A stretch of 64,000 bases of DNA from Candidatus Competibacter sp. (GTDB lineage Bacteria; Pseudomonadota; Gammaproteobacteria; Competibacterales; Competibacteraceae). Within the stretch, counting starts at the first letter, position 1. Every line of letters begins with the position of its first letter. Shown here in pieces: positions 16,488 to 62,326 of the stretch. The stretch spans positions 14,515 to 78,514 of the forward strand of contig DAORPQ010000004.1 in the NCBI GenBank assembly GCA_035442025.1, in the 5' to 3' direction. The notes under the pieces are model-generated. The model saw nothing but the letters and a program-made list of their open reading frames with translations, was not told where the DNA came from and made no database searches. Both the position numbers and the translations under genes were made by a program.

Positions 16488-16820
16488 CTATTCAGGGATG
16501 CGGAATGTTTCTTGGTTTACCCCGTTCTCAAGCGCTTGTTTGAGCCAACCCGGTTTTTTGCCATGGCCCGTCCAGGTTTGTTGGGGGTCGGCAGGGTTAC
16601 GGTACTTGGCCTTGCCGGTGGATTTGCGCTTGCGGCCAGCATATTGCAAGATTTCTTCCGGCTGCATCCCAAGCTGGTTGGCTTTGGCCAGCCATTCGCT
16701 ACGGATCGCCTCTATTTCATCAATCTTCTTGTACTTAATCTCCTCTTCAGCTCTCCTGATCAGGGACTGAAGGTCTTCGATGGAAGAGGATTTAATGATG
16801 TCTTCGATAGAATTGCTCAT
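16488..16820 (-). CDS. H-NS family nucleoid-associated DNA-binding protein
   Basis: C-terminal KYRNPADPQQTWTGHGKKPGWL matches the H-NS-type DNA-binding motif (TWTG-x-G-[RK]-x-P). The N-terminus is coiled-coil-like. ATG at 16820 (MSNSIEDII) is preferred to 16859. Gene and flanks are visibly AT-rich. Confidence 0.8.
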   Translation of the reverse strand: MSNSIEDIIKSSSIEDLQSLIRRAEEEIKYKKIDEIEAIRSEWLAKANQLGMQPEEILQYAGRKRKSTGKAKYRNPADPQQTWTGHGKKPGWLKQALENGVNQETFRIPE

Positions 16821-17051
16821 GATTTTACTTTTGCCGTTGTTAATGTGTGTAGTTTGCAATGTGCGTGAGTGCTTTCACCAGGCTATTGTAGGGCATTTGT
16901 TTTTGCGTTCGCAATTGCTTCGTGCATCTTTCGATTCGACAAACTCGCCAGGAATCGTAAAACGATCCTTGATAATACCGATAGCCACACCGCACAGTAC
17001 CATAAACCCTGCTGGGAAACGCGCTTACTCGCGGTCAAAGCAATATAAATC

Positions 17052-17762
17052 ATGATTTTATATAATAACCCCAGGATCGCCGACCATCTGCCGCACCGCA
17101 TCAAAAGCTTTGTGCGGCGCGAGGGGCGCATTACCAACGCCCAACGCCGAGCTTTTCACCAATTATGGGAGCGTTTCGGTATAGAGATTTCTTTATCCCC
17201 TATCGAGCCGGCGAAACTGTTTGGCCGCCATGCCTCACTGATATTGGAAATCGGTTTTGGTGATGGCGAATCTTTAGCCGCTACCTGCGCCACCAATCCC
17301 GAGATGGATTTCCTCGGGATAGAAGTGTATCGTCCGGGGGTCGGGCACTTGTTGCTGCGCGCCGCCGAGCTGGAATTGCGCAATCTAAAAGTTATTTGCT
17401 TCGACGCCGTGGAAATACTGGAGCGACATTTGCCAGAGTCTTGTTTGGACCGCGTCCAGATTTTCTTTCCCGATCCCTGGCCCAAACCCCGCCACCACAA
17501 GCGCCGCCTTATCCAGCCGGCGTTCGCTTCCTTATTGGCCCGCAAGCTTAAAGCTGCCGGAGTGCTACATATCGCCACTGACTGCGAAAGCTACGCGCGC
17601 GCCGCCTCGAAAATCCTGGTCGCCATCCCCGAATTGAAAAACATGGCGGCCGATAGTGGATATATCTCGGCTCCGCCTTATCGACCTCCGACGAAATTCG
17701 AGCAACGGGCTAAAGGCTCGGGACATCCTGTGTGGGAAATACTGTTTTTAAAGCCTATCTAA
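17052..17762 (+). CDS. trmB: tRNA (guanine46-N7)-methyltransferase TrmB
   Basis: 236 aa. IKSFVRREGRITNAQRRA, LEIGFGDGESL, IFFPDPWPKPRHHKRRL, HIATD. Confidence 0.93.
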   Translation: MILYNNPRIADHLPHRIKSFVRREGRITNAQRRAFHQLWERFGIEISLSPIEPAKLFGRHASLILEIGFGDGESLAATCATNPEMDFLGIEVYRPGVGHLLLRAAELELRNLKVICFDAVEILERHLPESCLDRVQIFFPDPWPKPRHHKRRLIQPAFASLLARKLKAAGVLHIATDCESYARAASKILVAIPELKNMAADSGYISAPPYRPPTKFEQRAKGSGHPVWEILFLKPI

Positions 17763-18062
17763 TGGTCAAAAAATGATCGCTCGGCGGCGAATGCGCGGTG
17801 AAGGCTTAGCAAGCTCTTTTAAATACGGCCGCTGGCGCTCGGCCATTTGCCTCTCTCCGCCGACGCCCGACAGGCGTGCGGGCGGCCGCTTTCACGGCAA
17901 TCGGTCAACGCAAGCTTTTTTCTATAAAGAACGCTGGCCGATCAGCAAGTTTTTGTCCAAAATTAATGACTATCGCATCAAGCAAGTAGAATGGCCGGGC
18001 TTTTATCTCTAGCACAGCGGGATAACCAAGCCCGAATTTCAGTCGGCGACGAGGTCAAACAG

Positions 18063-20072
18063 ATGTTTTTTGGAATTTTTTTTGGGAACGCCCGCATGTG
18101 GGAGCCGCGCTCCTGGATACTGGGCGCAGCCTTGGGATTACTGGCGATGGACTCCGTTCTGGCCCAGGAAGGCTGGGGCGCGTTTGGAGGGCCTGAGGTC
18201 GCCGCCCGAGCCGTCGTGCTGATGAATGCCAACACGGGCGAAATCCTCTTCGCCAAAGAGCCCCATCTGCGCCTGCCGCCCGCCAGCACCACCAAGGTCC
18301 TGACCGCGCTGGTCGCCATGGAGCGTCTCGACCCGAATGCTCGGGTGCAGGCCAGCGCGCAAGCCGCCAGCACCGTGCCTAGCCGCATTGGCTTGCACGC
18401 CGGCGAGATGGCCTCGACCCATGATTTGCTGTACGGCTTGATGCTGAAATCGGGTAATGACGCCGCCGAAACTCTGGCCGAAGCCGCCGGCGGTTCGGTT
18501 TATGGCTTTGCCAGCTTGATGAACAGCAAGGCCTGGAGCCTCGGGGCGCGCAACAGCCACTTCATGAACCCGCACGGCCTGCCCGACGAGGATCATTATT
18601 CGACAGCCTACGATCTGGCGCTGATTTTCCGCCACGCCATGAACTACCCGATGTTTGCCGACATCGTCCGCACCCGCAGCGCGGTGTTGCGCATCGATTC
18701 CGGGCAAGGCCCTTACAACGATTCGCGGCTGGTGCCGGTGATGAATCACAACCGGTTGCTGGCCACTTACGAAGGCGCGCGCGGCGGTAAGACCGGTTTT
18801 ACGCTCAAGGCGCGCCGTTGTTTCGTCGGCGAAGTCGATCGCGGCGGCGTCCGTCTGATCGTTTCGCTATTGGGCAGCCCCAGCAGTGGAACCTTGTGGC
18901 AGGATGCCCATACCTTGCTCGACTACGGGTTTGCCCGCTACGGCTTGGCGCCGCCCGTCCCGGTGCAGCCGGTGACCGAGCCGCAGCCCATCATGGTCCG
19001 TCGCACGCCCGTCATCACGCCCGACGCGGAACGCTTGGCCATGCTACAACCGGAGCTTGAAGAAGATGAGCCCGAACCGTTGATGGGGCGAACCTTATCG
19101 GCGGCAGCCCCGACACCTAACCGTACCTGGGCGGCCCCCACCGCAACGGCCGATCGCGCCACAACCCGACGCGCACCGGTCTCGTCTCCGAATTCAGCCT
19201 TGGCGACCAGAATCCAACCGACGGTCGAAGAGGCTGAGCTAGAGTCGATCAAGCCCAAACCCGCTCTCGCCGCCACCGCGCCACCTCCCAAACCAGCGGC
19301 CCAGGCCCAAGCGGCGGCCGAGGCGGATGAACTGGAACCGATCAAGGCCAGGCCCGCTCTCGCCGCCGCCACTCCTCCGCCTCCAAAACGCGAGGCTATG
19401 GCTCAATCGACGACCAAAGAGGATGAAGCGGAACTGACCTCGTTCCGACGCCCGCCCGCCACGACCGACGCCCCGAACTCGGAGCGCACCGCCATGATCC
19501 GATGGTCGGCTGAGGAAGAGGAGCCGGAACCCGTCAAGGCCCGGCGTGAGCCTGTCGCCACCCCGCCGATTTTCGACCGCCCGGCCATCATGCGGCAGGC
19601 ATCGGCCGAAGACGACTACACTCCCAGTCGCACCAAACTGAAAGCTCGGCCAGCGTCATCGAAAGCGGCGGCTCCGGGCAAGCCAGCCAATCCCAGCAAG
19701 CTGGCTGCCGCCGGCAAGCCAGCCAGCCCCGTCAAACCGGCCGTTTCCGACAGTCCAGCCAGCCCCGTCAAACCGGCGGCGGCTCCAGGTAAGTCGGCGG
19801 GCTCGACCAAACCGATCGGCGCGACCGGCAAGGAAAAAGGTCTTGCTGACAGCCGCTCCTCCACCTTGAAGGCTCCGCTGGCAGCCGGCAAAACCAAAGC
19901 CAACGGGGCCGGAGCACCCGCCCTCAAGGGCAGTAAAACTATCGCATCGACTAAACCGGTAGCTCCCGTCACCGTAAAACCGGATAAACGCGCGGCAGCC
20001 CCCAAGGTTATTGCGCGAGTCGAACCGACCAGCCCCAAGCTTCCGCAGAAAGGCGTCAAGCGGCGGATCTAA
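18063..20072 (+). CDS. D-alanyl-D-alanine carboxypeptidase (S11, PBP5/6-like catalytic domain) with a long Pro/Ala/Lys-rich C-terminal extension
   Basis: SxxK (ASTTK), SxN (KSGND) and KTG (GGKTGFT) motifs are present. ATG at 18063 lies 8 nt after GAGG and gives a signal-peptide-like N-terminus. Residues after about ...YGFARYGLAPP are low-complexity repeats through to the stop. Confidence 0.85.
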   Translation: MFFGIFFGNARMWEPRSWILGAALGLLAMDSVLAQEGWGAFGGPEVAARAVVLMNANTGEILFAKEPHLRLPPASTTKVLTALVAMERLDPNARVQASAQAASTVPSRIGLHAGEMASTHDLLYGLMLKSGNDAAETLAEAAGGSVYGFASLMNSKAWSLGARNSHFMNPHGLPDEDHYSTAYDLALIFRHAMNYPMFADIVRTRSAVLRIDSGQGPYNDSRLVPVMNHNRLLATYEGARGGKTGFTLKARRCFVGEVDRGGVRLIVSLLGSPSSGTLWQDAHTLLDYGFARYGLAPPVPVQPVTEPQPIMVRRTPVITPDAERLAMLQPELEEDEPEPLMGRTLSAAAPTPNRTWAAPTATADRATTRRAPVSSPNSALATRIQPTVEEAELESIKPKPALAATAPPPKPAAQAQAAAEADELEPIKARPALAAATPPPPKREAMAQSTTKEDEAELTSFRRPPATTDAPNSERTAMIRWSAEEEEPEPVKARREPVATPPIFDRPAIMRQASAEDDYTPSRTKLKARPASSKAAAPGKPANPSKLAAAGKPASPVKPAVSDSPASPVKPAAAPGKSAGSTKPIGATGKEKGLADSRSSTLKAPLAAGKTKANGAGAPALKGSKTIASTKPVAPVTVKPDKRAAAPKVIARVEPTSPKLPQKGVKRRI

Positions 20073-20102
20073 TCTTTATCCGGCGATCCCGCCCACCCCG
20101 TT

Positions 20103-20133
20103 AAAAAAGGCGATTCAACGGAATCGCCTTTTT
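20103..20133. terminator. Bidirectional rho-independent terminator between convergent dac-like and gltA genes
   Basis: AAAAAA-GGCGATTC-AACG-GAATCGCC-TTTTT. Perfect 8-bp stem with a U tract on both strands. Confidence 0.85.
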
Positions 20134-20170
20134 CAGCGGCCCCACCAGCCGGCCAGAGTCTCGCCCTCCG

Positions 20171-21457
20171 TTACGCACGCTCGCGCAACAGCGGCACGTC
20201 CCGGCGGGCTTCACCGACGTACAGCTGTCGCGGACGACCGATTTTCTGGTCTTTTTCAGTGATCATCTCGATCCAGTGGCTGATCCAGCCCGCGGCCCGC
20301 GCGATGGCGAACATCACGGTAAACATCTCGACCGGAATCTTCAGCGCGCTGTAGATGATGCCCGAGTAAAAATCCACGTTGGGATACAGCTTGCGCTCGA
20401 TGAAATAGGGATCGCTCAGGGCGATTTCTTCCAAGCGCATGGCCAAATCGAGGCGCGGATCGTGCCCGAAGCTTTCCAAGACTTCATGACAGATATCCTT
20501 GATGATCCGCGCGCGCGGATCGAAATTCTTGTAAACGCGGTGACCGAAGCCCATCAGGCGCACGCCGCTGCTCTTGTCCTTGACCTTGGCGATGAAGCCG
20601 TCGATATTCGATACTTGACCGATTTCATCCAACATGCGAATCACCGCCTCGTTGGCGCCACCGTGCGCCGGACCCCACAGGCAGGCGATGCCCGCGGCGA
20701 TCGCCGCATAAGGGTTGGTGCCGGAAGAACCCACCAGCCGGACTGTCGAGGTGGAGGCATTCTGCTCGTGATCGGCATGGAGGGTGAACAGCACATCCAG
20801 AGCCCGCTCCGCCACCGGGTTTATCTCGTAACGCTTGCCGGGCAAGCTGAACATCATGTACAGCAAATTGCCGGTGTAACTCAGATCGTCGCGCGGATAA
20901 ATCGACGGATCGCCGATGCTGTGTTTGTAGCAGGCGGCGGCGATGGTCGGCATCTTGGCGATCAGCCGGCGGGCGGTCACCATGCGGTCTTCATCGTCCT
21001 GAATGTCGAGCCGATCGTGAAAGAATGCAGAAAGCGAACTGACCACGGCCGTCATCATCGCCATGGGGTGCGCGTCGTAATTGAAGCCGTGGAAAAAGCG
21101 GCGGAGATTTTCCCTAATCCGGTTGTGGCGGGTGATACTGGTCTCGAAAACCTGTTTTTTTTCAGCGTTGGGTAAATCCCCGTAGAGCAGCAAATAACAG
21201 ACTTCCAGAAAATTGCATTTCTGGGCCAGTTGCTCGATCGGATAACCGCGATACAGCAGCTCGCCCCTGTCACCATCCAGGTAAGTAATGGTGCTCTGAC
21301 AACTGGCCGTCGACATGAAACCCGGATCGTAGGTGAAATAGCCGAACTCTTTGGCCAGCCTGCCGATATCGACCACGGGAGAGCCATAAATCGGTTCCAA
21401 AACCGGCATTTGCACCGTTTTTCCAGTGACTTCATCTTTAAAGGTGATCGTTGTCAT
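20171..21457 (-). CDS. gltA: Citrate synthase (type II)
   Basis: [22 protein letters not shown]...; [31 protein letters not shown] at 21457 is preferred to the ORF start at 21535. Confidence 0.95.
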
Positions 21458-21790
21458 AGTTAGTGCCTCAAAGGTCGGCCGGTGAATCGGAGCGAGCCAG
21501 CAGCGCGCGAGCTTGGGCGAACGAACCCACCCCAACGGCTGTTAAGCGCTTTAAACCATTTTTTCAATATGGAGAATCGAGATTTTAACAGAAGCTGTTG
21601 CACTGCAAAATATTCTTGGAGCGGGCCGCATCTAGCCGTCCGGTTACCTGGACCGTCATCAGCTGCGGGCAGCCGCCTTCAAGGCGCTGGGTGTATCCAT
21701 CACCGCCAACCGGCGCTGTTGGATGGGAAGGATCGGCTGGATGCCTCGCCTCCTGGATGAGCCGCACCGAAGGGCCATGGATGTTGCGAT

Positions 21791-21824
21791 GCAGCAATGG
21801 TTGCTGTATATTGCATTGCAGCAA
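21791..21824 (+). promoter_or_regulatory. TGC-rich inverted repeats just upstream of the phasin-like gene (candidate operator)
   Basis: GCAGCAA-tgg-TTGCTG (21791-21806) followed by TTGCATTGCAGCAA (21811-21824). A related palindrome TTGCA-C-TGCAA lies at 21598-21608. RBS AAGGAG is at 21829-21834. Confidence 0.35.
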
Positions 21825-21840
21825 TTTCAAGGAGCGCGCT

Positions 21841-22191
21841 GTGATCGCAACCCCATTCAAACTACTGGAAGCCTCTCGAATGCTGGCGGAACCCTTGGTC
21901 AGGCTCAATCGAGCGGCAGCGGCGAATGCCGAAAACATGGTGGCTTTCCAGATGAGCGCCTTGAACTCCTACCTGACAATCAGCCTCAACCAGCTGAAAG
22001 CCGCCGCCGAAATCACCGATATCGCCAGCTTGCAGGATTTTTGCCAGCGCCAAACGGAGATCGCCAAAACCGTCCAGCAAAAGCTGTTGAGTGACGCCAG
22101 GGCCATCTCGGGCATCGACGGCTGGTTTACGGCCGAAATGGATGATCTCGCGCTAACCGTGCTAGATGAGCTACTACCCAAAGCCGTCTGA
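21841..22191 (+). CDS. Phasin-family (PHA granule-associated) protein, putative
   Basis: GTG at 21841 lies 6 nt after AAGGAG and is in frame with ORF 21598-22191. The 116-aa helical protein (LNRAAAANAENMVAFQMSALNSYLTISLNQLKAAAEITDIASLQDFCQRQTEIAKTVQQKLL) resembles Phasin_2-type proteins by eye only. Confidence 0.55.
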   Translation: MIATPFKLLEASRMLAEPLVRLNRAAAANAENMVAFQMSALNSYLTISLNQLKAAAEITDIASLQDFCQRQTEIAKTVQQKLLSDARAISGIDGWFTAEMDDLALTVLDELLPKAV

Positions 22192-44193: not shown

Positions 44194-47064
44194 TTACGGT
44201 CCTTCCACCAGTGCATACGGCGCCCAAACCTTGGGATCGCGCAGGGAGGGATTTTCGTCCTCGATGAAGAAAAGCTGGGTTTCGCGCAACGCCAGCGCAA
44301 GGTCTTTCGGTTTCGGGCCGTTCAGCCAAGTGCGGTAGAACCGCGCCATGAACTCGCGCGCCGGTCGATCACCTAGCGGCCACAGCGACATCAGGACGTT
44401 GCGTGCGCCAGCGGTGCGTAAAGCCCGGACCAGACCATACACGCCTTCGGCGTAATCCAGCGCGCCCTTGCCGGTATCGCAGGCGGAGAGCGCGACCAGT
44501 TCGGTGTCTTCCAGGTTCAAATCCTGCACTTCCAGGGCGTACAGAATCCCGTCTTCGCCGTCGGGGCCGGCTTTGCCCTGGAGACCCTGATTGGCGCCGG
44601 CCAGAGCGAGGCCGGACAGCACCATCGGCCGATCCACGATCCCGCTCTTTTCGCCGAGATAAAAGCCGTGGGTCGCCAGATGCAGCACGCGCGGCGGCGT
44701 GGCGAGGGTTTTCAAGCGGGATTCGGAGGCGTCCGCGCCGAGCCAGACTTGCGAAGGGATGTTCCAGTAGCTCCAGTACGCATTTTTCACTTCCTCGGCT
44801 TCCTTGCCAGTTTCGGCGAGCGCCTTGAACTGACCGATCTCGTTGGACACCGCGCGCGTGGCGACGGTCAGGTTTTGATCCGTCGGTTTCGGCTGTTGCG
44901 GCGTCGGCTCCTTGGCCGCGCCGAATCCCGCGTAGTCCACCCCGCCCAAGGCCAGCAGACCCTTGGGTTTGTCCAGATCGCGGTCGTAGGCGGCGATCAG
45001 ATGCCGTCCGGTGCTGACTTGGCGCAAGGTCTGGCGTTGAATCCAGTAGCGACCGTCCGGCGTCACCAGTTCGGCGAAGGCCAGCAGGCTGAGGAAACCG
45101 TCCGGCGCGATGTAGAGCGGGTCGTAGCGTTTCAGCTTGTCGTCGAGTTTGCCGAACAGTTGGCTGTACAGAGCGACGGCATCTTCCCGCGCGTGGGTTT
45201 TTTGCAGCTTTTGTGCCCATTCCTGGGTTGCCGCCACCGGACCCAGATCGTGCAACGACAGATCGCCTGCCGCTGGCAGCAGCAACGCCGCCCAATGGGG
45301 TTCGCCAAGTTTTCCAGTTTTGAAGTCACCCGGTCGATACTGGCGCAATTCCAGCAGCGCGCCACGGTCGAGCGGAAGAAAGTGGCGCACGTCGTTCACG
45401 CTCGCGCTGCGCACCTGCAAATGGCGATTGAATTCGCGGCTGATCTGGGCCAGCCGGATTTCCTTGGCTTCCAGTTCGTTCAGTTTCTTGAGCAGCAAAT
45501 CGGCATTCGGTTCCGGCGAATTCGCCAGATGGCTGAGATCGCGCCGGAGCTCGGCGCTTTGCCTTGCCAACTCGCGGATTTCGGTATCCTGCTCGCTGCG
45601 GCGGCGCACCAGCCGCGCCAGGAAAGCCTCTTCCTCGCCCTGAATCTGTTTCCAGCGCAGCATGACCTTGGCGGCGAGATCGAGATACTCCGGCTCAGGA
45701 TGGCTCAGTGTCAAGGTGAGCACCACATCCTGAAAATGCGATTGGCTCGTCAGAAATAGCCGCCGAACTGCCTCCTGCCGGGTATGGCGTAATTCCAAAG
45801 CAGCGCGTTCCAGCAGGCGCGGCTCCATACGTTGCAACAGTTGCAGCGCCTGTTTCGGCTGCCGGAGATTCACCAGCGCAACCGTGTAATTGATCTGAAC
45901 CTGTAAAGTAAGCGGATGCTCTGGGCCGAACACCTTCTCGCTTGCCGCCAGCGCCCGCCGGTGGAGCGGCTCCGCTTCCCCGTAGCGGCCTTGGTTTTGA
46001 TATAACAATGCGAGGCCATTGACGCTGGTCAGGGTATTGGGATGTTCCGGGCCGAGCACCTTCTCGCTCGCCGCCAGCACCCGCCGAAAGAGCGGTTCCG
46101 CCTCCCCGTACCGCCCTTGGGCTCGATATAAAAACGCGAGGTTGTTGATGCTGGTCAGGGTATTTGGATGCTCCGGTCCGAGCATTTTCTCGCGCACCGC
46201 CAGTGCCCGTCGAAAGAGCGGTTCCGCTTCCCTGTAACGCCCTTGGGCTTGATATAAAAACGCGAGGTTGTTGACGCTGGTCAGGGTAAATGGATGCTCC
46301 GAGCCAAGCACCTTCTCACCCGCCGCCAGCGCCCGCTGCAACAGCGGTTCCGCTTCCCTGTAACGGCCTTGGGCTTGATATAACCCCGCGAGATTGTTGA
46401 CGCTACTCAACGTGTCGGAGTGCTCCAAGCCCAGCACCTTTTCGCGCGCCATCAACGCTCGCCGAAAGAGCGGTTCCGCCTCCCCGTACCGCCCTTGCGC
46501 TTGATATAAACCTGCGAGATTGCCGATGCTGGTCAGAGTAAACGGATGCTCCGAGCCAAGCACCTTCTCACTCGCCAATAACGTTCGCTGAAAAAGCGGT
46601 TCCACTTCTCCGTACCGCCCTTGCGCTTGATATAACCCCGCGAGGTTGTTGGCGCTGCTCAGGGTGTCCGGGTGCTCGGTGCCGAGCACCTTCTCGCGCG
46701 CCGCCAGCGCCCGCCGGTAGAGCGGTTCCGCTTCCCCGTAACGCCCTTGGGCTTGATATAAAAACGCGAGGTTGTTGACGCTGGTCAGGGTGTTCGGGTG
46801 TTCGGGGCCGAGTTGCTGCTCGGCGAACCGGTAAGTCTGCTCGGCGGCCATTTCGGCTGTACGATAGTTACCTTTTTGAAGAAGCCCGACAACATGTTCG
46901 TTAAGTGCATCCACAATTTCCTTTTTTTGAGGCACCTTTCCGGTTTTCTGTTGCAGATAGGCAGTAACCGCCTGGACATAGTGTTCACTTTTCGGCTCTT
47001 GGGCATGAGCGACAGCGCCCAAGCCCAGCCATCCCGCTAGCAGCCAACAACCGTATCGTTTCAT
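44194..47064 (-). CDS. Signal-peptide-bearing TPR-repeat / CHAT-domain (caspase-like peptidase) protein
   Basis: ATG at 47064 after AGGAGAG. Signal peptide MKRYGCWLLAGWLGLGAVAHA-QE. Seven near-identical 42-aa TPR units (LGPEHPNTLTSVNNLAFLYQAQGRYGEAEPLFRRALAxxEKV) plus one degenerate unit. Coiled-coil linker. C-terminal CHAT domain with His (VLHLATHGFY) and Cys (LVALSACDTG) dyad contexts. The ORF-track extension to 47724 overlaps the upstream gene. Confidence 0.85.
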   Translation of the reverse strand: MKRYGCWLLAGWLGLGAVAHAQEPKSEHYVQAVTAYLQQKTGKVPQKKEIVDALNEHVVGLLQKGNYRTAEMAAEQTYRFAEQQLGPEHPNTLTSVNNLAFLYQAQGRYGEAEPLYRRALAAREKVLGTEHPDTLSSANNLAGLYQAQGRYGEVEPLFQRTLLASEKVLGSEHPFTLTSIGNLAGLYQAQGRYGEAEPLFRRALMAREKVLGLEHSDTLSSVNNLAGLYQAQGRYREAEPLLQRALAAGEKVLGSEHPFTLTSVNNLAFLYQAQGRYREAEPLFRRALAVREKMLGPEHPNTLTSINNLAFLYRAQGRYGEAEPLFRRVLAASEKVLGPEHPNTLTSVNGLALLYQNQGRYGEAEPLHRRALAASEKVFGPEHPLTLQVQINYTVALVNLRQPKQALQLLQRMEPRLLERAALELRHTRQEAVRRLFLTSQSHFQDVVLTLTLSHPEPEYLDLAAKVMLRWKQIQGEEEAFLARLVRRRSEQDTEIRELARQSAELRRDLSHLANSPEPNADLLLKKLNELEAKEIRLAQISREFNRHLQVRSASVNDVRHFLPLDRGALLELRQYRPGDFKTGKLGEPHWAALLLPAAGDLSLHDLGPVAATQEWAQKLQKTHAREDAVALYSQLFGKLDDKLKRYDPLYIAPDGFLSLLAFAELVTPDGRYWIQRQTLRQVSTGRHLIAAYDRDLDKPKGLLALGGVDYAGFGAAKEPTPQQPKPTDQNLTVATRAVSNEIGQFKALAETGKEAEEVKNAYWSYWNIPSQVWLGADASESRLKTLATPPRVLHLATHGFYLGEKSGIVDRPMVLSGLALAGANQGLQGKAGPDGEDGILYALEVQDLNLEDTELVALSACDTGKGALDYAEGVYGLVRALRTAGARNVLMSLWPLGDRPAREFMARFYRTWLNGPKPKDLALALRETQLFFIEDENPSLRDPKVWAPYALVEGP
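45931..46812 (-). repeat. Seven tandem, in-frame 126-bp repeats encoding the TPR array
   Basis: The landmark CACCTTCTC (or a close variant) recurs at 45931, 46057, 46183, 46309, 46435, 46561 and 46687, with the array ending at 46813. The period is exactly 126 bp. Long identical runs occur between units, e.g. GGTTCCGCTTCCCTGTAACG.CCTTGGGCTTGATATAA. Confidence 0.9.
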
Positions 47065-47078
47065 GGCTCGCTCTCCTT

Positions 47079-47714
47079 TCAGGGCAACACCCGCAGCAGC
47101 TTTACCTCTTTCAGCGGTAGTTTGATCACCGGTAGCCGGGCCGGTTTGCCGTCGGGGGGCAATTTGAACAAGAACAGCGTTTCCTTGTTCTCCAATAGCA
47201 AGCGATAAACGCCGCCGGGTAACTCCCCATACAACTCCTTCAAAGTGGCATCCTCCGGCAGCGGCTCGTTCGGCCAGACGCGCACATGCGGATACGCCAA
47301 AAAACCGTTGTCCTGCTGCGCCTGGTAATACCACCCCGCGCTGACCGCCGCCAGCCACCACGCCAACAGGAACGCCAACAACACCCCGAGTATCTGCAAC
47401 TGCTTGAGCAGCCGAGGCCGTTCCGTCTTGAGTCGGTCCAGCCGGGGCGACAGGCGGGACTCGTAAAAGGCCAGCAGCACGATCCCGAGTCCGTAGGGAA
47501 TCACCAGCCACCACCACGTCTTGAAGACCCAAAAGCCGTACACGAAAAAATACTCGGTGGGAATCTCCAGCGTCAGCAAGCCCAGCTTGAAATGACCGAA
47601 GTAGTGGTAGGCGTAAGTCCAGCCGGTGAAGTACCCCAGAGCGGTGAGAAGCGCCGTGACGGTGGCAAGATCGAGCAGCAATGGGCCGGCGGTTCTCTCG
47701 CTTGGCGCGCTCAT
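47079..47714 (-). CDS. Hypothetical polytopic membrane protein, middle gene of the CHAT operon
   Basis: 211 aa. Three to four hydrophobic helices (LLLDLATVTALLTALGYFTGW; FFVYGFWVFKTWWWLVIPYGLGIVLLAF; ILGVLLAFLLAWWLAAVSAGWYY) then an ~80-aa soluble tail. ATG at 47714 overlaps the upstream stop (ATGA). No recognisable family. Confidence 0.65.
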   Translation of the reverse strand: MSAPSERTAGPLLLDLATVTALLTALGYFTGWTYAYHYFGHFKLGLLTLEIPTEYFFVYGFWVFKTWWWLVIPYGLGIVLLAFYESRLSPRLDRLKTERPRLLKQLQILGVLLAFLLAWWLAAVSAGWYYQAQQDNGFLAYPHVRVWPNEPLPEDATLKELYGELPGGVYRLLLENKETLFLFKLPPDGKPARLPVIKLPLKEVKLLRVLP

Positions 47715-48013
47715 TTGGGGGCATCCTTGGCGGAATCGCCGCGAATATCGCCGCCTCCGAATTTGATCGTCTGCCTGCATGGATTGCAGCGGCCCTGCCC
47801 GGCGGCGATCCGGGTCCAGCCGGTCAGATCATCCAGTTTATAGGGATTGCCGTAATCGTCCCGGCACTGCGCCACTTCGCGGAGGCCCTGCGTTTGCATT
47901 TCGCAGCCATGGCGAAAGTGATCGTCCTTGGTTTCAAGGCAGAAACACCCGTCGGCCGCCACGCTCGCAATTGGAACGGCGAACAGCAGTAAAATGAGGC
48001 GCATAGCATTCAC
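47711..48013 (-). CDS. Small secreted Cys-rich protein, first gene of the CHAT operon
   Basis: 100 aa. GTG at 48013 lies 7 nt after GGAGAG (ATG at 48004 is an alternative). Signal peptide MRLILLLFAVPIASVAA. The mature part has six Cys (CFC...C...C...CNPC). No recognisable family. Confidence 0.6.
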   Translation of the reverse strand: MNAMRLILLLFAVPIASVAADGCFCLETKDDHFRHGCEMQTQGLREVAQCRDDYGNPYKLDDLTGWTRIAAGQGRCNPCRQTIKFGGGDIRGDSAKDAPK

Positions 48014-48053: not shown

Positions 48054-48085
48054 TACTCTTGCCAGTCACGCCCGACGAGCGCCGC

Positions 48086-49726
48086 ATGAAATCCGACCGA
48101 CTCGATTCCGACCGCCTCGCGCGGGTCATCGCTTATCATCAAGCGAGCAAGCATCATCCGGACCGTTACGCTCCCGGTCCCGGCGGACTGGACTGGGCCA
48201 ACCAGCCCGACCCGTTCCGCCGCTTTGCCGGAGCGCCACGCATCGAACTGCCGTTGCGGGCCGATTCGCTGTCCATCCCGTTTGAATCCGTGCGCCGGGG
48301 CGAACGGCCAACGCCTTATCCGCTCGAACGGCATTCGCTGGCGATGTTGTTTGAACTTTCACTGGGGTTATCCGCCTGGAAACAGCACGGCGGCTCACGC
48401 TGGGCGCTGCGCTGCAACCCGTCGAGCGGCAACTTGCATCCGACCGAAGGCTATCTGATCTGCCCCGCCCTCCCCGGCTTGACGGCCGGCGTTCATCACT
48501 ACCTGAGCCACGATCACGTTCTGGAGCAGCGCGCCGCACCAGCGTCAACCGGCTGGGGTAGCGAACTGCGCGGCGGTGTCGTGGTGGCGCTGAGCGGCAT
48601 CCACTGGCGGGAAGCCTGGAAATACGGCCTGCGGGCCTACCGCTATTGCCAGCACGATTGCGGCCACGCCATCGCCGCCATCGCCTACGCCGCCACCGCG
48701 TTGGGCTGGCGGGCGCGACTGCTCGACGGCTGGGGCGACGATCAGCTCGCCGCCCTGCTGGGACTGAATCGGGCCGAGGATTTCGCCGACGCCGAACCGG
48801 AGCATCCCGAAATCGCGCTGTGGCTCGGCCCAGAACCGCCGCCCGCAAACTTGTCGCCCGCTACGCTGGCGCACGAACTCTCCTTCACCGGCCACGCCAA
48901 TCGCCTGAGCCATTCCCGGCGCGATTGGCGGGGCATCGCGGAAGCGGATCGGGCCGCCCATCGGCCGAACGCTCTACCCTCGCCCCCTTTCCAGCCAACC
49001 GCCTATCCACCGCCGACCAAATCCGGTTGCGTCGCCAGCGCCGCCGAGCTGATCCGCCAGCGCCGCAGCGCGGTGGCTTTCGATGGCGTCACCACCTTGC
49101 CCGCCGAACGCTGGTTCGGAATGCTGGACGCGCTGTTGCCGCGCCCCGAGGTTCCGCCGCTCAATGCTTGGCCGTGGCCGCCGCGCGTGCATCCGCTGCT
49201 GTTCGCCCACCGGATTGAGGGAATCGCACCGGGTCTTTATCTGCTGGTTCGGAATGGGGAGAAGCTGGCGGAATTGCAAGCGGCGCTGCACGGTGAATGG
49301 GAGTGGGCGCGGGTCGAACCAGCGCCGGCGCATCTGCCGCTTTACCGGCTGAGCACCGGCGACGCGCGCGAGGCGGCGCAAGTCATTTCCTGCCATCAGG
49401 ACATCGCCGCCGCTTCCTGCTTCGCGCTCGGCTTCCTGACCGAATTCGCCGACCCGCTACACGACAGGCCGTGGGTGTACCGGGAACTGTTCTGGGAAAC
49501 CGGCCTGCTGGGGCAGATTCTTTACCTGGAAGCGGAAGCCGCCGGCATCCGCGCCACCGGCATCGGCTGTTTCTTCGATGACGCTTTGCACCGGCTGCTG
49601 GGACTGGAAGGTTTGGGGTGGCAGTCGCTCTACCACTTCGCCGTCGGCGGCCCGGTCGAGGATCGGCGCTTGCAAACGCTGCCGCCTTACACCCATCTGA
49701 ACCGGTCGAGGACATCACCGGATTGA
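48086..49726 (+). CDS. Two-lobed SagB/ThcOx-type nitroreductase-family dehydrogenase
   Basis: About 546 aa. HQASKHHPDRYAPGPGGLDWANQPDPFR and RCNPSSGNLHP (SagB-type R-x-x-PS-x-G-x-L-H/Y-P). The second half has nitroreductase-like features (IRQRRSAVAFDG; ATGIGCFFDD). Start is uncertain (ATG at 48086 or TTG at 48059). Confidence 0.75.
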   Translation: MKSDRLDSDRLARVIAYHQASKHHPDRYAPGPGGLDWANQPDPFRRFAGAPRIELPLRADSLSIPFESVRRGERPTPYPLERHSLAMLFELSLGLSAWKQHGGSRWALRCNPSSGNLHPTEGYLICPALPGLTAGVHHYLSHDHVLEQRAAPASTGWGSELRGGVVVALSGIHWREAWKYGLRAYRYCQHDCGHAIAAIAYAATALGWRARLLDGWGDDQLAALLGLNRAEDFADAEPEHPEIALWLGPEPPPANLSPATLAHELSFTGHANRLSHSRRDWRGIAEADRAAHRPNALPSPPFQPTAYPPPTKSGCVASAAELIRQRRSAVAFDGVTTLPAERWFGMLDALLPRPEVPPLNAWPWPPRVHPLLFAHRIEGIAPGLYLLVRNGEKLAELQAALHGEWEWARVEPAPAHLPLYRLSTGDAREAAQVISCHQDIAAASCFALGFLTEFADPLHDRPWVYRELFWETGLLGQILYLEAEAAGIRATGIGCFFDDALHRLLGLEGLGWQSLYHFAVGGPVEDRRLQTLPPYTHLNRSRTSPD

Positions 49727-50956
49727 AGCGGGGCGCTCCTGAGCGAGCGCGGCATCGACCAGTTCGATCCAATGCCTGACCGGCGTCCGGCCGGCGCTAT
49801 TCAAATGGGTTTGGCAACCGACATTGGCGGTGACGATGGTTTCCGGTTGGCCGCTTTCCAGCGCGTCCAGCTTGCGGTCGCGCAGCGCGATGGCGATTTC
49901 CGGTTGGGTCAGCGCGTAGGTTCCCGCCGAACCGCAACAGAGGTGGCCATCGGACACGGCGGTCAACTCGAAACCAAGTTGGCGCAACACCGCTTCCACC
50001 GCGCCGCCGAGTTTCTGGGCGTGCTGCAAGGTACAGGGACAGTGGACCGCGAGCCGCTTGCCGCCGCGCAACGCCAGCACGTCGAGCGGCTCGGCGCGCA
50101 GCACCTCGACCAGATCCTTGGCCAGTTCGCCGACGCGCGCGGCTTTGGCCGCATAGCGTGGATCGTCTTGCAGCAGCTCACCGTAATCCTTGACGAAAGC
50201 GCCGCAGCCGCTGGCGGTCTGGACGAAGGCCTCGGCGCCGGCTTCGATAGCCGGCCACCAGGCGTCGATGTTGCGGCGGGCACGATCGCGGGCCGCTTCC
50301 TGGGCGTTCAAGTGGAAATCGATCGCGCCGCAGCAACCGCCTCCGGCGGCCGACACGACCGAAACGCCGAGCCGGTCGAGCACGCGCGCCGCCGCCGCGT
50401 TGGTGTTCGGCGACAGTTCGGGTTGGGCGCAGCCTTCCAGCATCAGCACCCGGCGGGCGTGGCGTAACGGCGGCCGTTCGCGCGCGGGCGCGGCGCGCGG
50501 CGGCAATTTTGCCGACACCGCTTCCGGCAACCAGGGCCGGATGAGCTTGCCGGCCCGCGCCAGCACCCCGAATACGGTGGGATGGGTCACGACGGCGCGC
50601 AACAGACGGCGTTGCACGCGCTGGCCGGCCGGACGCGCTGCCAGAACCTCCACGGTCTTGCGGCCGACATCGAGCAATTTGTGGTATTGCACCCCCGAAG
50701 GACAGGTGGTCTCGCAACTGCGGCAGGTCAGACAGCGGTCCAGGTGTTCGAGCGTGCTGGCGCTGGCTTCGCCGGTTTCGAACATCTGCTTCATCAGATA
50801 GATGCGTCCGCGCGGGCCATCGAGTTCGTCACCCAGCAATTGGTAGGTCGGACAGGTGGCGTTGCAAAAACCGCAGTGCACGCACGCCCGCAACACGGTT
50901 TCGACCACCTTGCCGTCGGGCGTGTCGCGAATCCAGTCGATCAGTCGCGTGTCCAT
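49715..50956 (-). CDS. glcF: Glycolate oxidase iron-sulfur subunit GlcF
   Basis: 413 aa. Two 4Fe-4S motifs (CVHCGFCNATCP, CLTCRSCETTCP) and CCG domains. Confidence 0.93.
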   Translation of the reverse strand: MDTRLIDWIRDTPDGKVVETVLRACVHCGFCNATCPTYQLLGDELDGPRGRIYLMKQMFETGEASASTLEHLDRCLTCRSCETTCPSGVQYHKLLDVGRKTVEVLAARPAGQRVQRRLLRAVVTHPTVFGVLARAGKLIRPWLPEAVSAKLPPRAAPARERPPLRHARRVLMLEGCAQPELSPNTNAAAARVLDRLGVSVVSAAGGGCCGAIDFHLNAQEAARDRARRNIDAWWPAIEAGAEAFVQTASGCGAFVKDYGELLQDDPRYAAKAARVGELAKDLVEVLRAEPLDVLALRGGKRLAVHCPCTLQHAQKLGGAVEAVLRQLGFELTAVSDGHLCCGSAGTYALTQPEIAIALRDRKLDALESGQPETIVTANVGCQTHLNSAGRTPVRHWIELVDAALAQERPASIR

Positions 50957-58825: not shown

Positions 58826-61800
58826 ATGTCCCAGCCTTTGCTCAAACCGGAAGATCCGGCCGGTTCCGATGCGCCGTTAGCGCCAGCGGAAAGCGGCGCT
58901 GTCATGGTCAAGCCAGTCTTCTTCGATCCCGCGCGCAAGCGCTGGCCACGCCTGCGCGCGGGGATGATGCTGGCCGCACTCGGCCTGACGGTGCTGTTGG
59001 GGGGACTCTTGGCCAGCATCCTGGCCAGTCCGGTGCTGCCCGCGCTCAACCTGCCGGGCGCCAGTTTTTTGCCGCTAGGGGCCCACGCCGTTCCCGCCCT
59101 GCCCGCGCTAGCTCCCGAGCGCGCGCTCACCCGCCGCGAACGCGCCCTGCATAAAACCAAGCTGAAACTGGCTCGCGAGCGCGAGCGCGATTTGCGACAA
59201 CTGCTGGCGACCCAGATTCACAAAGCGGGTCCCATCGCGGACAAACCGCAACTCGCCATCGGCTTTTTCGTGAACTGGGACGATTCGAGCATGACTTCGC
59301 TCAAGCAGAATCTCGGCAGCCTGGATATGGTGATCGCCGAGTGGCTGCACCTTGCGGCCGAGGATGGCTCGTTGCGAGAAGACGATCCCGTCCGTCAGTC
59401 GCAGGCCACGAGCTACATCCGCACCCGCCATCCCGATTTGTCGATCGTCCCGCTGGTCAACAACTGGAACGGTCACGACTGGGAAGGGGCAAAACTGGGG
59501 CGGGTGCTGGCCGACCAGCCGGCGCGGACGCGCGTAATCGGGCAGTTGCTCGCCTATGTGGAACGCCACAATTTCGCCGGCGTCAGCATCGACTTCGAAA
59601 ACATCCCCGCCAAGGCTCAACCCGACTTCCAGCGCTTCATGGCCGAACTCTACACCGTGTTCCATCCGAAGAATTTATCGGTCTCGGTGAACGTGCCGGC
59701 CAGCGACCCAGCCTTCGACTACCGCAAATTGGCCGGCAGCGCCGATCACCTGATCCTGATGGCCTACGACGAGCACTGGTCCACCGGCGCGCCCGGCCCC
59801 ATCGCCAGCCTGCCTTGGTTCGCCAAAGTGCTGCGCCAGCGCCAGCATGACGTACCCGCCGCCAAAACGATCGTCGCCATCGGCAATTACGCTTACGATT
59901 GGGAAAACGGCCACCCCGCCGAGGAGCGGACCTTCGAAGAAGCGGTGCTGGTCGCCAAGGAATCGGAAGGCGCTATTCATCTCGACCCCGTTTCGCTCAA
60001 TCCCACCTTCGATTACGCCGACGACAACGATCGCATCCATCATGTCTGGATGTTGGACGCTGTTACGGCTTTCAATCAGTTGGCGGTCGTGGGTTCAATA
60101 CGACCGCGCGGGGTCGCGCTCTGGCGTCTGGGCAGCGAAGATCCCGCGCTCTGGCGGGTGTTTGGCAAAACCGGGCCGATGGACGCGGCGCGCGCCGCCG
60201 AATTGGGCGAAATCCATTTCGGCTACGGTCTGGATTACGAGGGGAAAGGCGAGGTCCTCGAAATCACCGCCCGCCCGCAGCCGGGGGCTCGGACCCTCAC
60301 TTTCGATCCGAAACGCAACTTGATTACCGCCGAACGCTACACGCAATTTCCGTCGCCCTACATGATTACCCGGCACGGCGGCATACCGCGCAAGGTCGCC
60401 TTGACTTTCGACGATGGCCCCGATTCACGCTTTACGCCCCAGATTCTCGATGAGCTCCATAAAGCCGGCGTTCCGGCCACCTTCTTCATCATCGGCGTCA
60501 ACGGCGAGCTGAATCCAGATTTGTTGCGACGCGAGGTCGATGAAGGCCATGAGATCGGCAATCACACCTTCACCCATCCCAACATTTCCAGCATTTCCTC
60601 GGGCCAGTTTCAGCTCGAACTGTCCGCGACCCAACGTCTGCTGGCCAGCGCGGTGGGCCGCCATTCGTTGCTGTTCCGCCCGCCTTACGCGGTCGACGCC
60701 GAACCCGAAACCATCGACCAGCTCCGCCCCATCGAGTGGGCGTCCGAACAAGGCTATCTGGTGGTGGGGATGCAGATCGACCCCGACGATTGGCAGCGGC
60801 CCGGCGTGGAGGAGATCGTCCGGCGCACCGTGGCCGAGGCGGAACGCGGCGAAGGCAACATGATCCTGCTGCACGACGCCGGCGGCGACCGCAGCCAAAC
60901 CGTGGAAGCCATTCCCAAAATCGTCGCGGCGTTGCGCGAGCGGGGTTTCCAGTTCGTGACCGTCTCCGATTTGCTGGGCCGGAGCCGCGACGAGGTCATG
61001 CCGCCGGTGCCGCCCGACAGCCGGTGGCAAACTTGGTGGGACGGGGCGGCGTTCGGCGTGTTCAACTGGTCGGCGGCGCTCATCCATTGGCTGTTTTTGC
61101 TGGGGATCGTGCTCGGCATCGCCCGCTTGCTGTTGATCGGCGTGCTCGCCCTGTACCAGCGCTGGCGCGGGCGGCACGCGGTCTTCGACCCGACCTATAC
61201 GCCTTCGGTGGCGGTGATCGTGCCCGCCTACAACGAAGAAAAAGTCATCGCCCAGACCGTTGTTTCCCTGTTGGCCAGCCAGCATCCCCAGCACTTCGAA
61301 ATTATCGTGATCGACGACGGTTCCGCCGACGCCACCTATCGGGTAGCGCGTGACACCTTCGCGAACGATCTGCGGGTGCGGGTGTTCACCAAACCCAACG
61401 GCGGCAAACCGGCCGCGCTCAACTTCGGTCTGGCGCAAACCCGCGCGGAAATCGTCGTGGCCTTGGACGCCGACACCGTGTTCACCCGCGACACCATCAG
61501 CAAGTTGGTCCGGCATTTTGCCGATCCGGGCATTGGCGCGGTGGCCGGCAACGCCAAGGTGGGCAACCGGGTCAACCTGCTCACCCGTTGGCAGGCGCTG
61601 GAATATATCACCAGCCAGAACCTGGACCGGCGCGCTTTCGATGTGCTCAACTGTATTACGGTGGTCCCCGGCGCGGTGGGGGCTTGGCGGCGCGAGCTGA
61701 TCGCACGGGCCGGTGGGTTCACTCATCTCACGCTGGCGGAGGACGCCGATCTCACCATGCAGATCCGCAAGCTGGGCTACACCATCGCGTATGAAGACGA

Positions 61801-62326
61801 AGCGGTGGCCCTGACCGAGGCGCCCGATACCGTGGGCGGGTTCATCCGCCAACGTTACCGGTGGATGTACGGCACCATGCAGGCGGCCTGGAAGCACCGC
61901 GATGTGCTGTTCCGGCCGCGTTACGGCGCGCTGGGTTTTGTGGCCCTGCCCAATATCTTTATCTTCCAGGTCTTTTTCCCGTTGATTTCACCGGTGATGG
62001 ATCTGCTGCTCATCGGGTCGCTGGCCAGCGCGGCCTTCAATTACGGGCAGCATCCCGCCGAGTTTTCAGCGGATGCGCTCTGGCGCGTCCTGTTCTACTA
62101 CGCCCTGTTCGTGACGGTGGACTATCTGGCCGCCGTGTTGGCTTTCGCGCTGGAGCGCCGGGAAAGTTGGAGCCTGTTGGTCTGGCTGTTCTGGCAGCGC
62201 TTTTTCTATCGCCAGCTGATGTACTACGTCGCCATCAAGAGCACGCTGACCTCCCTGCGAGGCGTCCTGGTCGGTTGGGGCAAGTTGGAGCGCAAAGCGA
62301 CGGTGACGGTGCGGGAGGCCACTTAA
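58826..62326 (+). CDS. Membrane-anchored trifunctional-looking protein: GH18-like domain + CE4 polysaccharide deacetylase + processive family-2 glycosyltransferase
   Basis: 1166 aa. TM about aa 46-70. GH18-like about aa 142-445 (AGVSIDFE). CE4 about aa 520-715 (TFDDGP, HEIGNHTFTHP, FRPPY, ILLHD). TM(s) about aa 740-777. GT2 about aa 793-1025 (VPAYNEE, DDGSAD, DADT, AEDADL, QRYRW). C-terminal TM bundle. Confidence 0.85.
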   Translation: MSQPLLKPEDPAGSDAPLAPAESGAVMVKPVFFDPARKRWPRLRAGMMLAALGLTVLLGGLLASILASPVLPALNLPGASFLPLGAHAVPALPALAPERALTRRERALHKTKLKLARERERDLRQLLATQIHKAGPIADKPQLAIGFFVNWDDSSMTSLKQNLGSLDMVIAEWLHLAAEDGSLREDDPVRQSQATSYIRTRHPDLSIVPLVNNWNGHDWEGAKLGRVLADQPARTRVIGQLLAYVERHNFAGVSIDFENIPAKAQPDFQRFMAELYTVFHPKNLSVSVNVPASDPAFDYRKLAGSADHLILMAYDEHWSTGAPGPIASLPWFAKVLRQRQHDVPAAKTIVAIGNYAYDWENGHPAEERTFEEAVLVAKESEGAIHLDPVSLNPTFDYADDNDRIHHVWMLDAVTAFNQLAVVGSIRPRGVALWRLGSEDPALWRVFGKTGPMDAARAAELGEIHFGYGLDYEGKGEVLEITARPQPGARTLTFDPKRNLITAERYTQFPSPYMITRHGGIPRKVALTFDDGPDSRFTPQILDELHKAGVPATFFIIGVNGELNPDLLRREVDEGHEIGNHTFTHPNISSISSGQFQLELSATQRLLASAVGRHSLLFRPPYAVDAEPETIDQLRPIEWASEQGYLVVGMQIDPDDWQRPGVEEIVRRTVAEAERGEGNMILLHDAGGDRSQTVEAIPKIVAALRERGFQFVTVSDLLGRSRDEVMPPVPPDSRWQTWWDGAAFGVFNWSAALIHWLFLLGIVLGIARLLLIGVLALYQRWRGRHAVFDPTYTPSVAVIVPAYNEEKVIAQTVVSLLASQHPQHFEIIVIDDGSADATYRVARDTFANDLRVRVFTKPNGGKPAALNFGLAQTRAEIVVALDADTVFTRDTISKLVRHFADPGIGAVAGNAKVGNRVNLLTRWQALEYITSQNLDRRAFDVLNCITVVPGAVGAWRRELIARAGGFTHLTLAEDADLTMQIRKLGYTIAYEDEAVALTEAPDTVGGFIRQRYRWMYGTMQAAWKHRDVLFRPRYGALGFVALPNIFIFQVFFPLISPVMDLLLIGSLASAAFNYGQHPAEFSADALWRVLFYYALFVTVDYLAAVLAFALERRESWSLLVWLFWQRFFYRQLMYYVAIKSTLTSLRGVLVGWGKLERKATVTVREAT

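Follow-up and report, generated by a model that had tools for sequence, protein, structure and literature searches.

Proteases with a CHAT domain are among the commonest uncharacterised bacterial relatives of the caspases, and to our knowledge only craspase and separase among them are well understood, both acting within the cell. Within craspase, the CHAT protein Csx29 is inactive until a signal arrives. DdvA of Myxococcus xanthus, a protein whose tetratricopeptide repeats (TPRs) and CHAT domain lie in the periplasm, is proposed to sense a phage-derived periplasmic protein there, cut its own linker close to the membrane and free a sigma factor of the extracytoplasmic function (ECF) class (PMC11506125). 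According to its authors, it is the only periplasmic TPR-CHAT studied so far (PMC11506125). Here we describe a trio of genes from Candidatus Competibacter sp. encoding a TPR-CHAT protein of 956 amino acids (aa) with a predicted export signal, a 100-aa Cys-rich protein that also appears to be secreted, and a 211-aa membrane protein that we call M211. The window, by which we mean the whole stretch of DNA analysed, comprises 64,000 nucleotides (nt) of assembly GCA_035442025.1 (contig DAORPQ010000004.1, forward-strand positions 14,515-78,514), and the trio occupies 44194-48013 in it as three open reading frames (ORFs) arranged head to tail on the minus strand. ORF calling reproduced the coordinates of the three packed genes given in an earlier note on this DNA, which had been made from the sequence alone. 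That note did not recognise the trio as a described system, and we found no description of it in the literature searched; its list of precedents left out DdvA, the one characterised case of a periplasmic TPR-CHAT.

The three genes are linked across phyla. Word-indexed searches found both small proteins only in Competibacteraceae, the named homologues coming from Candidatus Competibacter or Competibacteraceae bins. A scan with M211 as sole seed and one genome per species, in which neighbours were called by our own family profiles and Pfam, gave 26 loci whose hosts are Competibacteraceae, other Gammaproteobacteria (Chromatiales, Methylococcaceae), Alphaproteobacteria, cable bacteria and other Desulfobulbaceae, Candidatus Anammoxibacter (Planctomycetota) and Entotheonella. 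A gene for a caspase-fold protease adjoins M211 in 23 of the 25 informative loci (Table 1), and a Cys-rich gene with a signal peptide lies directly upstream of M211 in nearly all of them, which bears out the co-occurrence of the two small genes with CHAT genes on which the earlier note had staked its case. The layout of the window, with a six-Cys gene bearing a CFC motif, an abutting or overlapping M211 gene and a TPR-CHAT gene with a signal peptide, recurs in L002, L006, L007, L009 and L023 and also in L024, L031, L035, L044, L116 and L118. Distant M211 representatives (P0150, P0228) likewise lie near CHAT genes, and Cys-rich relatives that were found independently (P0242, P0239) stand upstream of an unannotated ORF about as long as M211 (217, 219 aa), followed downstream by a TPR-CHAT gene in the P0242 locus and by an unannotated ORF of 927-974 aa in the P0239 loci. 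Conversely, among the best 80 metagenome loci seeded with the CHAT domain, the Cys-rich/M211 pair stands only beside CHATs at least 42% identical to that of the window, and no pair was found in loci with about 30-38% CHAT identity. Taken together, the two scans indicate that the pair almost always has a protease neighbour and that the protease clade is not always accompanied by the pair.

Two gene orders occur, namely Cys-rich, M211, CHAT and CHAT, Cys-rich, M211, the latter in L021, L035, L040, L048, L051 and L056. One of these loci is a tandem of TPR-CHAT, Cys-rich, M211 and TPR-CHAT genes (L035:3-6255), and the short contig L064 carries a CHAT gene and then a Cys-rich gene before it ends, short of any M211. 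Loci L035, L040, L048, L051, L056 and L064 point either to arrays of the module or to permutation of its genes. What stays invariant is the Cys-rich/M211 pair, whose link to CHAT is strong without being rigid. The earlier note had spoken of a protease hard-wired to its two partners; the linkage is strong, but a cassette-tolerant M211-CHAT junction, permuted gene order, exceptions with a Peptidase_C14 or a von Willebrand factor A (vWA) neighbour and CHATs that lack the pair all argue for looser wiring. A locus of Candidatus Anammoxibacter (L015:8909-11977) replaces the TPR-CHAT gene with a Peptidase_C14-LPP20 fusion and a CsgG/LpoB-like lipoprotein beside the Cys-rich/M211 pair, so the pair may accompany exported caspase-fold proteases generally. 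Elsewhere in Competibacteraceae (L007), the trio and a Uma2 gene lie between genes for a MoxR AAA_3 ATPase (7222-8295) and a DUF58 protein (15029-16378). This setting and the vWA neighbour seen in L026 could reflect a link to MoxR-vWA systems, or chance.

The largest of the three proteins has the architecture of a sensor-like repeat array joined to a caspase-fold peptidase domain. It matches TPR_12 (1.9e-105) and TPR_10 (2.7e-101, over 7 stretches) in Pfam, and Tandem Repeats Finder resolves its gene into 7.1 copies of a 126-nt unit with 80% match. The seven near-identical 42-aa TPR units and one degenerate unit that the earlier note had counted are all there, the seven sharing 69-88% identity with one another (mean 78%). 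Within Competibacteraceae, linked orthologues are 746-1041 aa long (e.g. L007, L009). The stretch at residues ~420-640 is a putative coiled coil, as labelled in the earlier note. Family names that NCBIfam and PADLOC offered for the protease, such as FxSxx_TPR, were rejected as sub-threshold matches driven by the TPRs. The CHAT match scores 191 bits against a cut-off of 24 and covers positions 3-287 of the 289 in the model. Both motifs of the putative dyad, which the earlier note had called intact, are present in the C-terminal domain: H799 in LHLATHG and, 63 residues further on, C862 in LSACDTG. All 12 of 12 orthologues from four phyla keep them, as LHL[AS]THG and LSAC[DEA]TG. When a profile of CHAT orthologues was compared with the PDB, a single sequence match resulted (8rot_B, E 0.0057), a 991-aa chain deposited as a CHAT domain-containing protein that fits the DdvA of PMC11506125. 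The catalytic Cys of DdvA is C907 (PMC11506125), and C862 of the window pairs with residue 907 of 8rot_B in the profile alignment, which places the window Cys at the catalytic position of a solved CHAT. The His falls outside this local alignment, and its equivalence comes from the full-length Pfam match and the invariant His-Gly motif. A PDB search with the single CHAT domain sequence gave only a chance match, EthR at E 0.59, so the profile was needed to reach DdvA. The predicted catalytic dyad H799/C862 is thus intact, and the protein would be expected to act as a protease.

Where would it act? The earlier note placed the protease in the envelope or outside the cell rather than in the cytoplasm, and conservation of the N-terminal signal among linked orthologues supports that placement. 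Signal-peptide calls were made by inspection, a crude rule and conservation. By these means the protease N-terminus parses into n-, h- and c-regions as MKR / YGCWLLAGWLGLGAV / AHA-QE, and that of the Cys-rich protein as MNAMR / LILLLFAVPIA / SVA-AD, with the CFC motif 2-3 residues after the end of this predicted signal peptide. The type I signal-peptide pattern, with a basic n-region, a hydrophobic h-region and a small-x-small c-region, is kept in orthologues from four phyla. All complete M211-linked TPR-CHATs begin in this way even though their N-terminal sequences are unrelated between phyla, and all proteins of the Cys-rich family have signal-peptide-like N-termini. In the wider TPR-CHAT set, 34 of 55 complete ORFs begin like a signal peptide under the crude rule, and the exported type of protease therefore appears to be widespread. 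Once its predicted signal is removed, the 956-aa protein has one Cys left, C862. The Cys content of linked TPR-CHATs is 0.35%, compared with about 1% for background ORFs, and many have the catalytic Cys alone. This fits an oxidising compartment but is not decisive, as three of them have nine or six Cys.

The Cys-rich protein, which the earlier note had rightly described as carrying a signal peptide and six Cys, has these at positions 23, 25, 37, 50, 76 and 79, and all six are kept in a family alignment of 25 sequences. An alignment of 10 sequences from Gammaproteobacteria, Alphaproteobacteria and Planctomycetota leaves C23, F24, C25, C37, C50, C76, C79 and R91 as the invariant columns, so that one Arg is as conserved as the six Cys. 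R91 lies 12-18 residues past the last Cys in the motif [IV][IP]?R[GN] and is followed by a variable polar end; the cable-bacterial version of the protein, of about 150 aa, has two copies of the domain with R or K at the corresponding place. Within Competibacteraceae the family changes slowly (60-80% identity) and conserves a KDAPK end. The protein matches nothing in Pfam, NCBIfam or PADLOC, and a cross-phylum profile search of proteins found no annotated or Pfam-bearing relative. We considered whether it is a lipoprotein and rejected this, since D, E, K or G precedes the first Cys, none of them a lipobox residue. Arg or Lys is the residue after which many peptidases of clan CD cleave, among them separase, metacaspases and gingipain R, and TPR arrays commonly bind peptide tails in extended form. 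Given these preferences and the invariance of R91 in the tail, we propose that the tail docks on the TPR array of the protease and is cut at R91, which is likely to be a cleavage or docking site.

M211 begins with three hydrophobic segments and continues as a soluble C-terminal part, in agreement with the 3-4 transmembrane (TM) helices and soluble tail that the earlier note had read from it. AlphaFold2 models it with a mean predicted local distance difference test score (pLDDT) of 83 and a predicted template modelling score (pTM) of 0.78, with helices up to residue 135 and a helix and five strands at 143-209. Across 33 members, the 21-residue loop between TM2 and TM3 holds 4.3 K+R against 1.2 D+E, and the first loop is neutral. 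By the positive-inside rule these charges argue for an N-in, C-out topology with the beta-rich domain (residues ~140-211) in the periplasm, and M211 is by prediction a three-TM inner-membrane protein whose C-terminal domain faces that compartment. An exhaustive profile search puts its family at 658 clusters (50% identity) with E<=1e-3, of which 228 reach E<=1e-10; almost all have a length of 200-235 aa. The earlier note had called both small partners family-less; it is true that neither belongs to a curated family (M211 has no match in Pfam, NCBIfam or PADLOC), but they are not orphans, as the reach of the M211 profile makes plain. Foldseek found no PDB match to the M211 model at E<=0.001, and its best weak matches, to small Sm-like or SH3-like barrels over the C-terminal domain only, are too weak to use. 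The idea that M211 is an enzyme was dropped because its invariant residues include no conserved polar set that looks catalytic.

Although the trio holds together, it does not stay in one place. None of the six genes flanking it in the window lies near the trio in any other locus, and a relative whose M211 is 88% identical has another genomic context and a fragmented CHAT gene. Genes for transposases, Uma2 and PD-(D/E)XK family proteins, SIR2 and F-type TraN occur near the trio in various loci. Some genomes carry two copies (L005/L006, L014/L015, L018/L027), and decayed copies are found in L001, L012:10195-10698, L029:9899-10447, L111:6723-7810 and L119:9365-11920, where TPR-CHAT genes are frameshifted or fragmented, a 167-aa C-terminal remnant of CHAT is left, or the M211 gene is split. 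The M211-CHAT junction in particular carries differing small cassettes in unrelated lineages (Table 1), including a conserved two-ORF pair in Competibacter loci that has a toxin-antitoxin-like layout and no Pfam match. Its changing location, its frequent decay and the insertion of toxin-antitoxin cassettes mark the trio as accessory and mobile, a horizontally moving cassette and not a housekeeping locus. In L116 the genes next to the trio encode SIR2 and an F-type TraN, a setting that suggests that a conjugative element carries this copy; there (2232-9576) a 513-aa protein with a sub-threshold match to MORN repeats and nothing else is inserted before the CHAT gene. In the window no direct or inverted repeats bracket the trio, and the idea of an insertion scar was dropped. 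Hosts of the module are mostly filamentous or aggregate-forming bacteria.

Table 1. Features of the trio in the window, genes adjoining M211 in related loci, and insertions between the M211 and CHAT genes.
Feature	Position or locus	Strand	Basis or remark
Cys-rich protein gene	47711-48013	-	GTG start, 100 aa; ORF and family alignments
R91 codon (motif GGDIRG), candidate P1 or docking residue	47741-47743	-	cross-phylum alignment
ATGA overlap of Cys-rich stop codon and M211 start codon	47711-47714	-	sequence
M211 (membrane protein) gene	47079-47714	-	211 aa; ORF, hydropathy, AlphaFold2 model
14-nt spacer AAGGAGAGCGAGCC with Shine-Dalgarno-like AGGAGAG, ahead of TPR-CHAT gene	47065-47078	-	sequence
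TPR-CHAT protease gene	44194-47064	-	956 aa; Pfam, orthologue alignment, PDB profile match to DdvA
Predicted signal peptide of TPR-CHAT protein, residues 1-21, MKRYGCWLLAGWLGLGAVAHA then QE	47002-47064	-	sequence inspection, n-h-c regions of orthologues
TPR array, residues 86-421	45802-46809	-	Pfam, Tandem Repeats Finder, unit comparison
CHAT domain, residues 628-953	44206-45183	-	PF12770, 4e-56
H799 codon, putative catalytic His	44668-44670	-	invariant in 12 orthologues
C862 codon, predicted catalytic Cys	44479-44481	-	invariant in 12 orthologues; aligns with C907 of 8rot_B
Terminator-like hairpin, 30 nt past TPR-CHAT stop codon	44150-44164	-	consensus scan
Promoter-like site for next gene (ferritin-like)	44138-44110	-	consensus scan
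TPR-CHAT gene or contig-truncated TPR start directly downstream of M211	18 loci		
CHAT remnant downstream of M211	L012		
TPR protein behind inserted PIN gene	L013		
Divergent TPR-CHAT	L014		
Peptidase_C14 plus LPP20 lipoprotein	L015		
TPR-CHAT directly upstream of M211	L021		
vWA protein, no protease	L026		
M211 disrupted, no protease	L029		
Contig ends, uninformative	L028		
PIN between M211 and CHAT	L013:11028-11456		
DUF6364 plus PIN between M211 and CHAT	L017:7146-7855		
PemK/MazF between M211 and CHAT	L036:3575-3919		
Two PIN pairs between M211 and CHAT	L118:2705-3957		
Two-ORF pair (83-87 aa, 107-127 aa) between M211 and CHAT	L005, L006, L020, L031, L119		Competibacter
Uma2 between M211 and CHAT	L022:10249-11076		

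In the window itself the gene junctions read as the earlier note had given them, with an ATGA overlap and a short gap carrying AGGAGAG, and the Cys-rich/M211 junction also overlaps or abuts in other phyla (e.g. L014, L015, L023, L114). The terminator-like and promoter-like sites of Table 1 come from a consensus scan, and such sites are no commoner than in shuffled sequence. The trio has a GC content of 0.59-0.60 against 0.65-0.66 in its flanks. On one side stand genes with Ferritin, FeoA and FeoB domains by Pfam, and on the other a gene for a 555-aa protein with a Nitroreductase domain and then a CCG/4Fe-4S cluster protein gene (49715-50956); neither flank of this copy holds phage or defence genes. 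The 555-aa protein (48059-49726) is encoded divergently from the trio by a gene 45 nt away from where the Cys-rich gene starts, and the Nitroreductase-family match is confined to its C-terminal third. Further away, a single 1166-aa ORF (58826-62326) encodes domains of glycoside hydrolase 18, polysaccharide deacetylase and family 2 glycosyltransferase together, a combination that is unusual in an exopolysaccharide synthase. Two 2-kb blocks (16001-18000 and 20001-22000) have a GC content of 0.54 and 0.57 against about 0.63 elsewhere, and their large ORFs look like housekeeping genes (Methyltransf_4, D-Ala-D-Ala carboxypeptidase, citrate synthase).

How might the three proteins work together? We tentatively favour a reading that we judge plausible, though somewhat short of probable, in which they form a three-component extracytoplasmic proteolytic module whose TPR-CHAT protease docks on the Cys-rich/M211 pair and cuts the Cys-rich tail at or near R91. 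The protease and the Cys-rich protein would be exported to the periplasm by Sec signal peptides, and M211 would be inserted by its three TM helices with the beta-rich C-terminal domain on the periplasmic side. M211 and the Cys-rich protein would be made together and most likely form a complex. The TPR array of the protease would then dock on this pair, with M211 serving as membrane docking or receptor partner, and the CHAT residues His799 and Cys862 would cut the Cys-rich protein in its flexible C-terminal tail, at R91 or beside it. Several observations weigh against this. In an Electrothrix locus (L026) the pair is followed by a vWA protein (10608-12164) with no protease within 10 kb. CHATs at 43-55% identity lack the pair despite enough flank (L037, L038, L042, L045, L050), which implies that the protease is not strictly dependent on these partners, and the cassettes inserted at the M211-CHAT junction imply that this junction can do without coupling. 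The role of the invariant Arg could also lie in structure or binding. Finally, AlphaFold2 modelled the Cys-rich family at a pLDDT of 49, too poor for a fold search, and the tail without confidence, so that its flexibility is weakly supported.

A small disulfide-rich protein with an exposed basic residue suits canonical inhibitors as well as substrates, and the Cys-rich protein might accordingly be a tight, substrate-like inhibitor with R91 as its reactive site, M211 tethering the latent complex until a signal comes. We regard this as unlikely, if well worth weighing. The protein is small and secreted, with six Cys and one invariant basic residue in an exposed segment, its gene comes first and is always co-encoded with the protease, and the characterised TPR-CHATs, DdvA and craspase, rest inactive (PMC11506125). 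Yet it has no similarity to any inhibitor family in Pfam, NCBIfam, PADLOC or the profile search, and it is to M211, not to CHAT, that the Cys-rich gene is most tightly coupled. The pair stands with a vWA protein and no protease in L026, and related CHATs lack such a partner.

The mobility of the module invites another explanation, which we hold to be unlikely to the same degree, namely that it serves surveillance or cell death. The fast-changing TPR array would sense a foreign or kin-derived protein in the periplasm, and CHAT would then cut M211, taking off its periplasmic cap, or free a ligand from the Cys-rich protein, whereupon M211 would breach or depolarise the inner membrane, an extracytoplasmic counterpart of protease-gasdermin or craspase logic. 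This would suit a module that is patchy, mobile, multi-copy and often decayed, that is doubled in some genomes and in tandem in L035, and that has toxin-antitoxin, Uma2, PD-(D/E)XK and transposase genes as neighbours, with SIR2 and TraN in L116. Near-identical TPR units in a protease whose linked orthologues vary so widely in length also speak for it, as do the mostly filamentous or aggregate-forming hosts and the role of DdvA, a periplasmic TPR-CHAT, in phage defence (PMC11506125). PADLOC, however, returned generic TPR matches only, and a PDB search of M211 gave no gasdermin-like or other known pore-former fold. The copy in the window has ferritin-like, FeoAB, nitroreductase and CCG/4Fe-4S genes around it and no phage or defence genes, and no site in the periplasmic part of M211 is conserved as strictly as R91 of the Cys-rich protein. 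Rather more doubtful still is a reading of the trio as caspase-type immune or cell-death signalling moved outside the cytoplasm. A periplasmic TPR-CHAT sensor with rapidly reshuffled TPRs would detect an incoming phage, predator or non-kin protein and cut the Cys-rich protein at the Arg; either the processed product or cleavage of M211 itself would turn M211 into an effector that permeabilises the membrane or signals to neighbouring cells, for example, and such a device would have spread horizontally among filamentous and aggregate-forming bacteria.

A small secreted product with a small membrane protein is the usual layout of toxin and immunity genes. The trio could thus be a Sec-dependent bacteriocin-like cassette, with the Cys-rich protein a secreted toxin or a precursor of a signalling peptide, M211 its immunity protein or receptor, and the TPR-CHAT a maturation protease that trims the tail. 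Translational coupling of a secreted disulfide-rich product to a small multi-pass membrane protein, a conserved Arg that resembles a processing site and the mobile, accessory nature of the cassette are consistent with this, but we consider it improbable. A protease of about 950 aa with a sensor-like TPR array would be unusual for simple maturation, the neighbours of related loci include no linked export or outer-membrane release component, and toxins usually diversify, whereas the Cys-rich protein stays 60-80% identical within Competibacteraceae and keeps its KDAPK end. That the adjacency is meaningless, or that the protease is cytoplasmic and its N-terminal stretch no export signal, is very improbable and strongly disfavoured: the window h-region is only moderately hydrophobic (19-residue Kyte-Doolittle mean <1.4), but the linkage is found again and again, in two gene orders and in at least five lineages distant from one another, the n-h-c pattern is kept where the sequence differs wholly between phyla, and both partners are themselves predicted to be extracytoplasmic.

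Having set out these readings, we return to the tentatively favoured one, docking and cleavage of the Cys-rich tail, and to what the trio offers. With its three genes it makes a compact test system, and both a likely substrate or partner and a candidate residue for cleavage can be named beforehand. Two protein families for which no curated model exists, one of them comprising hundreds of clusters, gain a context from it, and it draws attention to a whole clade of TPR-CHATs that appears to be exported, judged by signal-peptide-like N-termini. If the module proves to be a defence or kin-signalling device, caspase-like signalling would extend to the bacterial envelope. Competibacter and cable bacteria matter for wastewater treatment and sediment geochemistry, and any role in aggregation or filament formation would be of practical interest.

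Among characterised proteins, DdvA is the closest relative of the window protease. Both have a TPR array followed by CHAT, both are periplasmic (the window protease by prediction) and their catalytic Cys residues align, although sequence similarity is marginal and spans about 90 residues. DdvA holds an N-terminal zinc-binding anti-sigma domain and a lone TM helix in the same polypeptide; its partner is the ECF sigma factor DdvS, the island under its control is a CBASS-CRISPR one, and its CHAT lacks a three-helix motif, with the authors suggesting self-cleavage in trans (PMC11506125). The window protease, in contrast, appears to be soluble and exported, with a cleavable-looking signal peptide and no Pfam match to an anti-sigma domain; no sigma factor gene was found among the window neighbours or the Pfam-sampled neighbours of six related loci. 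The membrane part would be a protein of its own, with three TM helices and hardly any mass in the cytoplasm, and the Cys-rich secreted protein is present as a third partner. The Csx29/Csx30 craspase of type III-E CRISPR shares a TPR-CHAT with a His/Cys dyad and a protease co-encoded with a dedicated small partner or substrate. Unlike the window protease with its export signal, craspase works in the cytoplasm, where it is bound to Cas7-11 and RNA activates it; no cas genes adjoin the trio, PADLOC returned only weak generic TPR matches, and PDB searches gave no match to Csx29. Bacterial gasdermin operons with caspase-like or CHAT proteases resemble the trio in that a gene for a protease of clan CD type adjoins one for a membrane-targeting protein, which the protease is expected to control. 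Gasdermins, however, are soluble and cytoplasmic and become active once a C-terminal peptide is removed, whereas M211 is predicted to be an integral three-TM protein and all parts here are predicted to face the periplasm; M211 has no gasdermin match in Pfam and no PDB fold match, and the Cys-rich protein has no Pfam match. Beside these systems the trio looks like a real and previously undescribed envelope protease system, with a mechanism that we infer from its sequences. It shares with exported TPR-CHATs at large, which are all uncharacterised and many of which begin like a signal peptide at 30-55% CHAT identity, the type of its protease, and differs from them in the Cys-rich/M211 pair, which among the best 80 loci is confined to the subclade defined by that 42% bound.

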